Below, piece by piece: positions 14,536-14,726 of a DNA stretch of 14,726 nt. Each line of letters begins with the position of its first letter. Positions within the stretch are counted from its first letter, which is position 1. Below the pieces are notes generated by a model. That model ran no database searches and was not told the origin of the DNA. It was given only the letters and a program-made list of their open reading frames with translations. Origin of the DNA: a virus (Duplodnaviria > Heunggongvirae > Uroviricota > Caudoviricetes); the IMG/VR virus record IMGVR_UViG_2534681663_000009; one strand, given 5' to 3'. The translations under genes were made by a program, and so were the position numbers.

Positions 14536-14584
14536 ATAAAGCTGTCCTGTTCCCTCACCGCAGCACTTCGGGCAATCAGGATTG

Positions 14585-14726
14585 TGTAGTGGTCAAGTAA
14601 TATTGGCCACGGTTTTACAGTAAAAATGGTATCTGTTCTCTGACTCTTCCGGCGTCAGCCCACCGTTATAATGGTGAGGTCTGACGCTGTTGTAGTAGTT
14701 CAATATGTAATCATTAATTTGCTGCC
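14585..14726 (-). mobile_element. IS3-family insertion sequence, right (transposase-distal) end; element continues beyond the window
   Basis: Plus-strand 14585 onward reads TGTAGTGGTCAAGTAATATTGGCCACGG..., a TG-initiated terminal inverted repeat resembling IS911-type ends as I recall them; the transposase stop lies inside the IR, as is typical of IS3-family elements. Confidence 0.7.
14593..14726 (-). CDS. IS3-family transposase (OrfB, rve integrase-core type), C-terminal 43 codons; 5' part beyond window
   Basis: Minus frame open from the window edge to TGA at 14595..14593, translated by hand: [43 protein letters not shown]; YYN-x2-RPH...GGLTPEE matches the C-terminal signature of IS3-family OrfB proteins. 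Confidence 0.7.

Follow-up and report, generated by a model that had tools for sequence, protein, structure and literature searches.

Elements of the IS3 family are held to move by a copy-out-paste-in route. IS911, which is about 1250 bp long, is the described element that the 1258-bp element discussed here resembles. Shared between the two are the overlapping reading frames orfA (with HTH_Tnp_1) and orfB (rve/DDE), a −1 frameshift at AAAAAAG, TG...CA termini, and a target duplication of 3 bp. The host of the element also has a well-known counterpart. The Rac cryptic prophage of E. coli K-12 has the ynaK-ydaY neighbourhood in common with the relatives of the prophage described below, and in K-12 the whole block from terS to the tail tube gene is deleted. 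In our case, in contrast, no part of the structural operon is missing, and the interruption is confined to terS, the gene for the small terminase subunit. Phages that package by the headful mechanism need an intact small terminase to recognise their DNA and start packaging.

We analysed a single stretch of prophage DNA (the window, 14,726 nucleotides), on which all genes lie on the minus strand, and we consider it very likely that a 1258-bp IS911-like element sits in terS of a Rac-type E. coli prophage after codon 241, with CAA duplicated and the gene split. On this reading the element would have transposed into the terS coding sequence after codon 241 and, in doing so, would have duplicated the 3-bp target CAA. 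TerS would thereby be split into a 246-aa N-terminal fragment, which would carry the helix-turn-helix regions and end in five residues encoded by the insertion sequence (IS), and a second piece, the 107-aa C-terminal remnant that would begin at Met258.

The prophage and its relatives

Hundreds of complete E. coli genomes carry prophages with an intact terS that are ∼100% identical to positions 2-14584 of the window, and coverage is at least 80% in 694 of these genomes. In the relatives identical to the window, trkG, ynaK (ParB-like), ydaY, lom, stf, and tfaR follow one another in the Rac order. Judged by this synteny, the window prophage belongs to the Rac type of lambdoid prophages in E. coli and is a full-length relative of Rac. 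Its head genes form a pac/headful module, with a Terminase_6 TerL, a DUF4055 portal, a Mu-F-like minor head protein, and a P22-type coat.

Two other parts of the neighbourhood deserve mention. The ydaY homologue is a 153-codon open reading frame (ORF; 5048-5509, minus strand) that, together with a 77-codon ORF, sits between the tail tube and tape-measure genes (4740-5509, minus strand); tail assembly chaperones G/GT with a frameshift are usually found between these two genes. Just upstream of terS in relatives (L004 24309-25428), there is a 69-aa ORF that matches part of phrog_309, another terminase small-subunit PHROG, as well as a 310-aa protein that matches the glucosyl-HMC glucosyltransferase family (PF20691/phrog_842). 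The latter match hints that DNA may be modified in this phage family.

The insertion sequence

The right edge of the window (14585-14726, minus strand) corresponds to the final 142 bp of the element and matches the end of a full copy (L003 2506-3763) without a mismatch. The plus strand from 14585 reads TGTAGTGGTCAAGTAATATTGGCCAC.... A megablast search with positions 14580-14726 returned the same 147 bases in 2343 E. coli records, every one of them annotated as “IS3 family transposase.” Because of this, and because phage homology stops at 14584, the appearance of an IS end at this point is not due to chance. Full copies of the 1258-bp element occur in many E. coli chromosomes and plasmids and are 100% identical to the part in the window. 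It should be noted that neither the plasmid and chromosome annotations nor a literature search yielded a specific name for the element, only “IS3 family transposase.”

Alignment of the window with three full copies in unrelated contexts placed the IS tip at 14585, and three copies outside the window are flanked by 3-bp target duplications (TAG, GTG, and TAC). The sequences of the two ends, TGTAGTGG... at 14585 and ...CCACTACA at the opposite end of full copies, are identical at 24 of 36 positions; thus, they are imperfect inverted repeats, with the termini 5'-TG...CA-3'. The right repeat (IRR, 14585-14620, minus strand) has the tip TGTAG; within it lie the stop codon of the transposase gene (14593-14595) and the hexamer TTGACC, which faces outward (14591-14596).

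On the minus strand, positions 14596-14724 encode 43 residues, followed by TGA at 14595-14593, and this stretch (14593-14724) equals the C terminus of the 248-aa OrfB of full copies. OrfB is a DDE transposase with an rve core (Pfam rve, E 6e-27), and it scores 268.7 bits against the NCBIfam model for IS3 transposases (NF033516, for which the cut-off is 160 bits). In full copies, beyond the window, orfA encodes 115 aa with HTH_Tnp_1 and orfB lies in the −1 frame, with an AAAAAAG (A6G) motif for a programmed −1 frameshift at nucleotide 333 of the element. The RefSeq label on the full element is “IS3 family transposase, programmed frameshift” (WP_085968792.1).

An earlier note on this DNA had read its right edge as an IS3-family element foreign to the phage, with a TG-initiated inverted repeat from about 14585 and the last 43 codons of an rve-type transposase on the minus strand. 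All of this is borne out by the match over 142 of 142 bases, and intact relatives are without the IS at this place. The same note looked ahead to an opposite inverted repeat, which in full copies lies 1258 bp away, and to a target-site duplication, which is 3 bp long at other copies and, in the present case, CAA, as indicated by the reciprocal protein product described below.

The window takes in just 142 bp of the element; most likely, the multi-copy repeat interrupted a short-read contig here. The left edge (1-305) falls in a gpK-like C40 peptidase tail gene (L004 8562-9305) that is repeated among lambdoid prophages. Each edge is therefore at a repeat, and both look like short-read contig breaks.

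The interrupted gene

In intact relatives, the gene upstream of terL is 1095 nt long and encodes a 364-aa “terminase small subunit” (WP_000089446.1). The protein matches PHROG 51 (terminase small subunit) over residues 1-364 and Pfam Terminase_2 over residues 122-316, a span that includes the insertion point. A full-length terS ORF is retained in 68 of 80 IMG/VR loci, among which there are 38 distinct full-length sequences (counted as those of 350-380 aa), with 87%-100% nucleotide identity. Given these profile matches and this retention, the 364-codon terS is a real, conserved gene. Helix-turn-helix-like stretches occupy residues 11-55 and 108-163 of the protein, and its sole similarity to a solved structure (E 0.13) is to the second of these, upstream of the break. 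Full-length TerS also has a CxxC...CxxCC motif, possibly zinc-binding, at residues ∼203-252 (L004 23211-24305), which is present in 33 of the 38 distinct sequences.

What the window retains is the 3' part of this gene (14212-14584, minus strand; terS nt 723-1095), comprising the last base of codon 241, codons 242-364, and the stop. It is identical to an intact relative (L004 23211-23583) at 373 of 373 positions. In the absence of any mismatch, the insertion must be intragenic, and the ATG at 14535 is codon Met258. The IS adjoins terS after codon 241 (Pro) and falls between the halves of the Cys-x2-Cys...Cys-x2-Cys-Cys motif, the second half of which is in the window at 14550-14584. The next gene, terL (12930-14231, minus strand), overlaps the end of terS and is intact; it encodes 433 aa in relatives, and Terminase_6N/6C are found on the identical protein.

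The 107-codon ORF previously taken for terS (14212-14535, minus strand) starts at the internal Met258. It matches PHROG 51 only at profile positions 183-261, the C-terminal third, and has no Pfam match on its own; thus, it does not match a small terminase over the full length, including the N-terminal DNA-binding part. Along the minus strand of 14536-14595, the frame of the transposase ORF is also that of the terS remnant, the two being parted only by the TGA within the IS terminal repeat, and this shared frame is probably a coincidence.

The second junction and alternative explanations

If the IS sequence is combined with a duplication of 3 bp, the other junction is predicted to join terS nt 1-725 to the left IS end. 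The predicted product is TerS(1-241)+NVVAH, 246 aa in length; without the duplication it would read ...AIPVVAH. Exactly this 246-aa protein exists as EMV85631.1, “terminase small subunit [Escherichia coli 2865200],” so the second junction is known as a protein record, not as DNA. EMV85631.1 requires CAA before the other IS end, and the window has one copy of this trinucleotide directly at the IS tip (14582-14584; TTG on the plus strand, CAA on the gene strand; terS nt 723-725). The sequences, therefore, support a simple insertion with duplication of CAA.

The 107-aa remnant also has an exact counterpart in E. coli 2865200, “hypothetical protein EC2865200_5462” (EMV81466.1). The co-occurrence of these two exact protein fragments, as distinct from a DNA match to the assembly, suggests that this strain is the source of the window. 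The presence of both terS halves in one strain, each at an IS end with CAA, argues against a chimera and against an IS-mediated deletion, the two alternatives that we consider first.

Only one junction is in the window, and one could suppose that the DNA beyond the IS is something other than the 5' part of terS, as would follow if the IS had mediated a rearrangement, be it an adjacent deletion, an inversion, or recombination between two copies. A related prophage has the same IS in ParB, the neighbouring gene, which makes two-copy recombination conceivable, and there are many deletions in the region among relatives. We nevertheless regard such a rearrangement as very unlikely, given that TerS 1-241 running into the other IS end with CAA exists in the same strain, as a simple insertion predicts, and that deletion of the 5' part of terS would not leave a product in which TerS(1-241) continues into the IS.

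Slightly less probable again is an assembly artefact, in which phage reads and an IS copy from another place have been fused in a chimeric contig end. The window does stop inside a multi-copy repeat, a typical spot for assembly errors, and the junction was in no complete genome or metagenome searched: a probe of positions 14400-14726 was at least 80% covered by none of 5426 complete E. coli genomes, with phage-side matches stopping at the junction, and neither JGI metagenome contigs nor GTDB representative genomes contained a junction 34-mer. However, the join is at the exact IS tip, and the reciprocal product, with the expected 3-bp duplication, is found independently among the proteins of the same strain. 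A chimera would not yield a matching second junction, and the reciprocal protein therefore counts against it.

Preferring an insertion into terS, we take the absence of the junction from those collections to indicate a rare, strain-level event. The event also appears to be recent, because the rest of the late operon in the window differs scarcely at all from that of relatives whose terS is intact and the IS is identical to its copies.

The earlier note had put the IS about 50 bp upstream of a short but complete terS, with 49 bp of native upstream sequence and a Shine-Dalgarno site in between. The distance from the IS tip to the ATG at 14535 was right, but these 49 bp (14536-14584) are terS codons 242-257. 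An intergenic insertion of this kind, which would uncouple the late operon from its promoter or drive it, is scarcely tenable: although an ATG, the only start of the ORF, does follow AGGA and open a 107-codon frame that overlaps terL, and although a 107-aa family, phrog_29114 (“unknown function”), matches that ORF end to end, the frame continues past this ATG to a 364-codon gene in all intact relatives, the 364-codon product fits small-terminase profiles over its whole length, gene annotations include the ORF only in genomes with a terS shortened by this IS or by deletions, and the junction is without a promoter-like site. Since phrog_29114 matches a terS remnant end to end, it seems to have been built from truncated terS, as opposed to representing a genuine family.

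Packaging and transcription

With TerS split, and given the dependence of headful phages on this protein, the prophage is most likely packaging-defective. A two-piece TerS, or TerS from another prophage, may serve as a source of packaging function.

Q and, after it, the lysis genes make up the late promoter region, which in relatives is ∼7 kb upstream, and the IS stands between that region and terL. The earlier note was thus right that the element separates the structural operon from the lysis and Q region, but not in taking promoter disconnection as the primary damage, which is instead the broken terS. Polarity on terL can be inferred, and Q-modified polymerase may read through the IS. The transposase gene has the orientation of terS and terL, so read-through from it into terL is possible. 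For the idea, also raised previously, that outward transcription from the IS drives terS and terL, we found no hybrid promoter: a consensus scan of the IS-terS junction gave zero promoter-like sites. A −35-like hexamer, TTGACC, in the IS tip (14596-14591, minus strand) was inspected by eye as a promoter and dismissed, there being no −10 at 16-18 nt.

Deletion endpoints in related prophages

Loci with the 107-aa remnant but no IS have arisen by deletion, and the deletion endpoints recur. All of the observations in this section concern the ParB-terS segment of relatives, outside the window. One base in ParB/ynaK, the last of ...TTTTGCCCGGTA (e.g., L011 8305-8324; in longer context, ...ACGGATGTTTTGCCCGGTA), is the nucleotide-precise left end of at least 11 different deletions, with junctions in L007, L014, L080, L096-L104, and L109. 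The partners are a TAGT-like gene; terS nt 382, 675, and 719; a DUF6651 gene; the minor-head gene; lom; three tail-fibre positions; and the end of a tfa gene. These deletions occur on different ParB alleles, and most partners are natively preceded by TA (a TA microhomology). A control search 12 nt upstream of the ParB base gave no junctions, and one 18 nt downstream gave only chance 18-mer matches in unrelated DNA. Deletions of the opposite polarity at this base were looked for and never found. Among 60 sampled complete-genome rows with the ParB region, three (∼5%) end exactly at this base.

Endpoints in terS are also re-used among relatives, at nt 91, 382, 473, and 674 (L006, L007, L011, L080, L085, and L087). 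Position 674, immediately before ACCCGAGCC, is the right end shared by three left partners and lies at the foot of a small imperfect palindrome; nt 382 is a right end shared by two partners and nt 91 a left end shared by two. A shorter pattern for the nt 674 junction had no match in IMG/VR. In one locus (L087), an in-frame deletion of 381 nt (terS nt 92-472) would give a 237-aa TerS.

Several origins for the ParB endpoint were considered and set aside. Cleavage at a pac site is not borne out, as no phage record starts there, hairpin-stimulated slippage would call for a strong hairpin that the ParB site does not have, and a pseudo-site for a Pin invertase is in the wrong register, with breakpoints that are not at the expected central dinucleotide. 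The ParB site and terS nt 674 do share 7-9 nt with the pix site of L096. Selection to keep trkG could explain the polarity of the deletions, but not their precision.

IEE-dependent IS excision is reported to give larger deletions at microhomologies (Kusumoto et al. 2011, reviewed in bioRxiv 10.1101/2023.06.07.543989). The IS-less deletions in relatives resemble these, but the recurrent ends here are without an IS. In two complete genomes, the recurrent deletion junctions were examined for an IS and none was present, and for the three commonest alleles the protein collection does not contain ParB(1-140)+M, the product expected if a TGTAG-ended IS sat at the ParB site. The lack of an IS at the ends and of the predicted product leaves the link to IEE at the level of a hypothesis.

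The recurrent ends could mark a site-specific DNA-breaking or strand-switching activity that is undescribed for this prophage, such as terminase cutting at pac, scars of IS excision dependent on transposase or IEE, or a replication pause. If they do reflect a specific mechanism, this would have a bearing on how prophages are domesticated. That the ParB-terS segment of Rac-type prophages breaks down non-randomly at particular sites, with the IS hit in terS as one case, strikes us as improbable.

Comparison with known systems

The main value of the result is for annotation. The 107-codon ORF, which is also the seed of a PHROG family, is a piece of terS as opposed to a small terminase, and this Rac-type prophage, although otherwise intact, ought to count as defective. 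When an ORF lies beside an IS end, it can be the 3' end of an interrupted gene even if a plausible Shine-Dalgarno sequence precedes it, and intact relatives settle such cases. Beyond annotation, the interruption of terS matters little.

As regards the element, we compared its right end with the published sequence of an IS911 IRR oligonucleotide (PMC2909936 Table 1). The two are identical at 27 of 36 positions, and the GGTCAA/TTGACC block is included in the match. Unlike IS911, the ends of which start with TGAAG, the element in the window has ends that start with TGTAG, and the repeat is only 75% identical. On these grounds, we consider it to be a distinct relative of IS911.

IS3-family elements often interrupt prophage genes, and the prophages of E. 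coli 13KWH46 (in ParB) and MS 119-7 (in the gap between the tape-measure gene and ydaY) provide examples. In the former, the identical 1258-bp IS sits in ParB with a target-site duplication of GTA on the gene strand (L001 6335-7592). In the latter, it is a different IS3-family element that lies between the tape-measure gene and ydaY (L005 10656-11884), with a further copy of that element beside the lysis genes (L005 27555 onward). Set beside these cases, the IS hit in terS is ordinary prophage decay.
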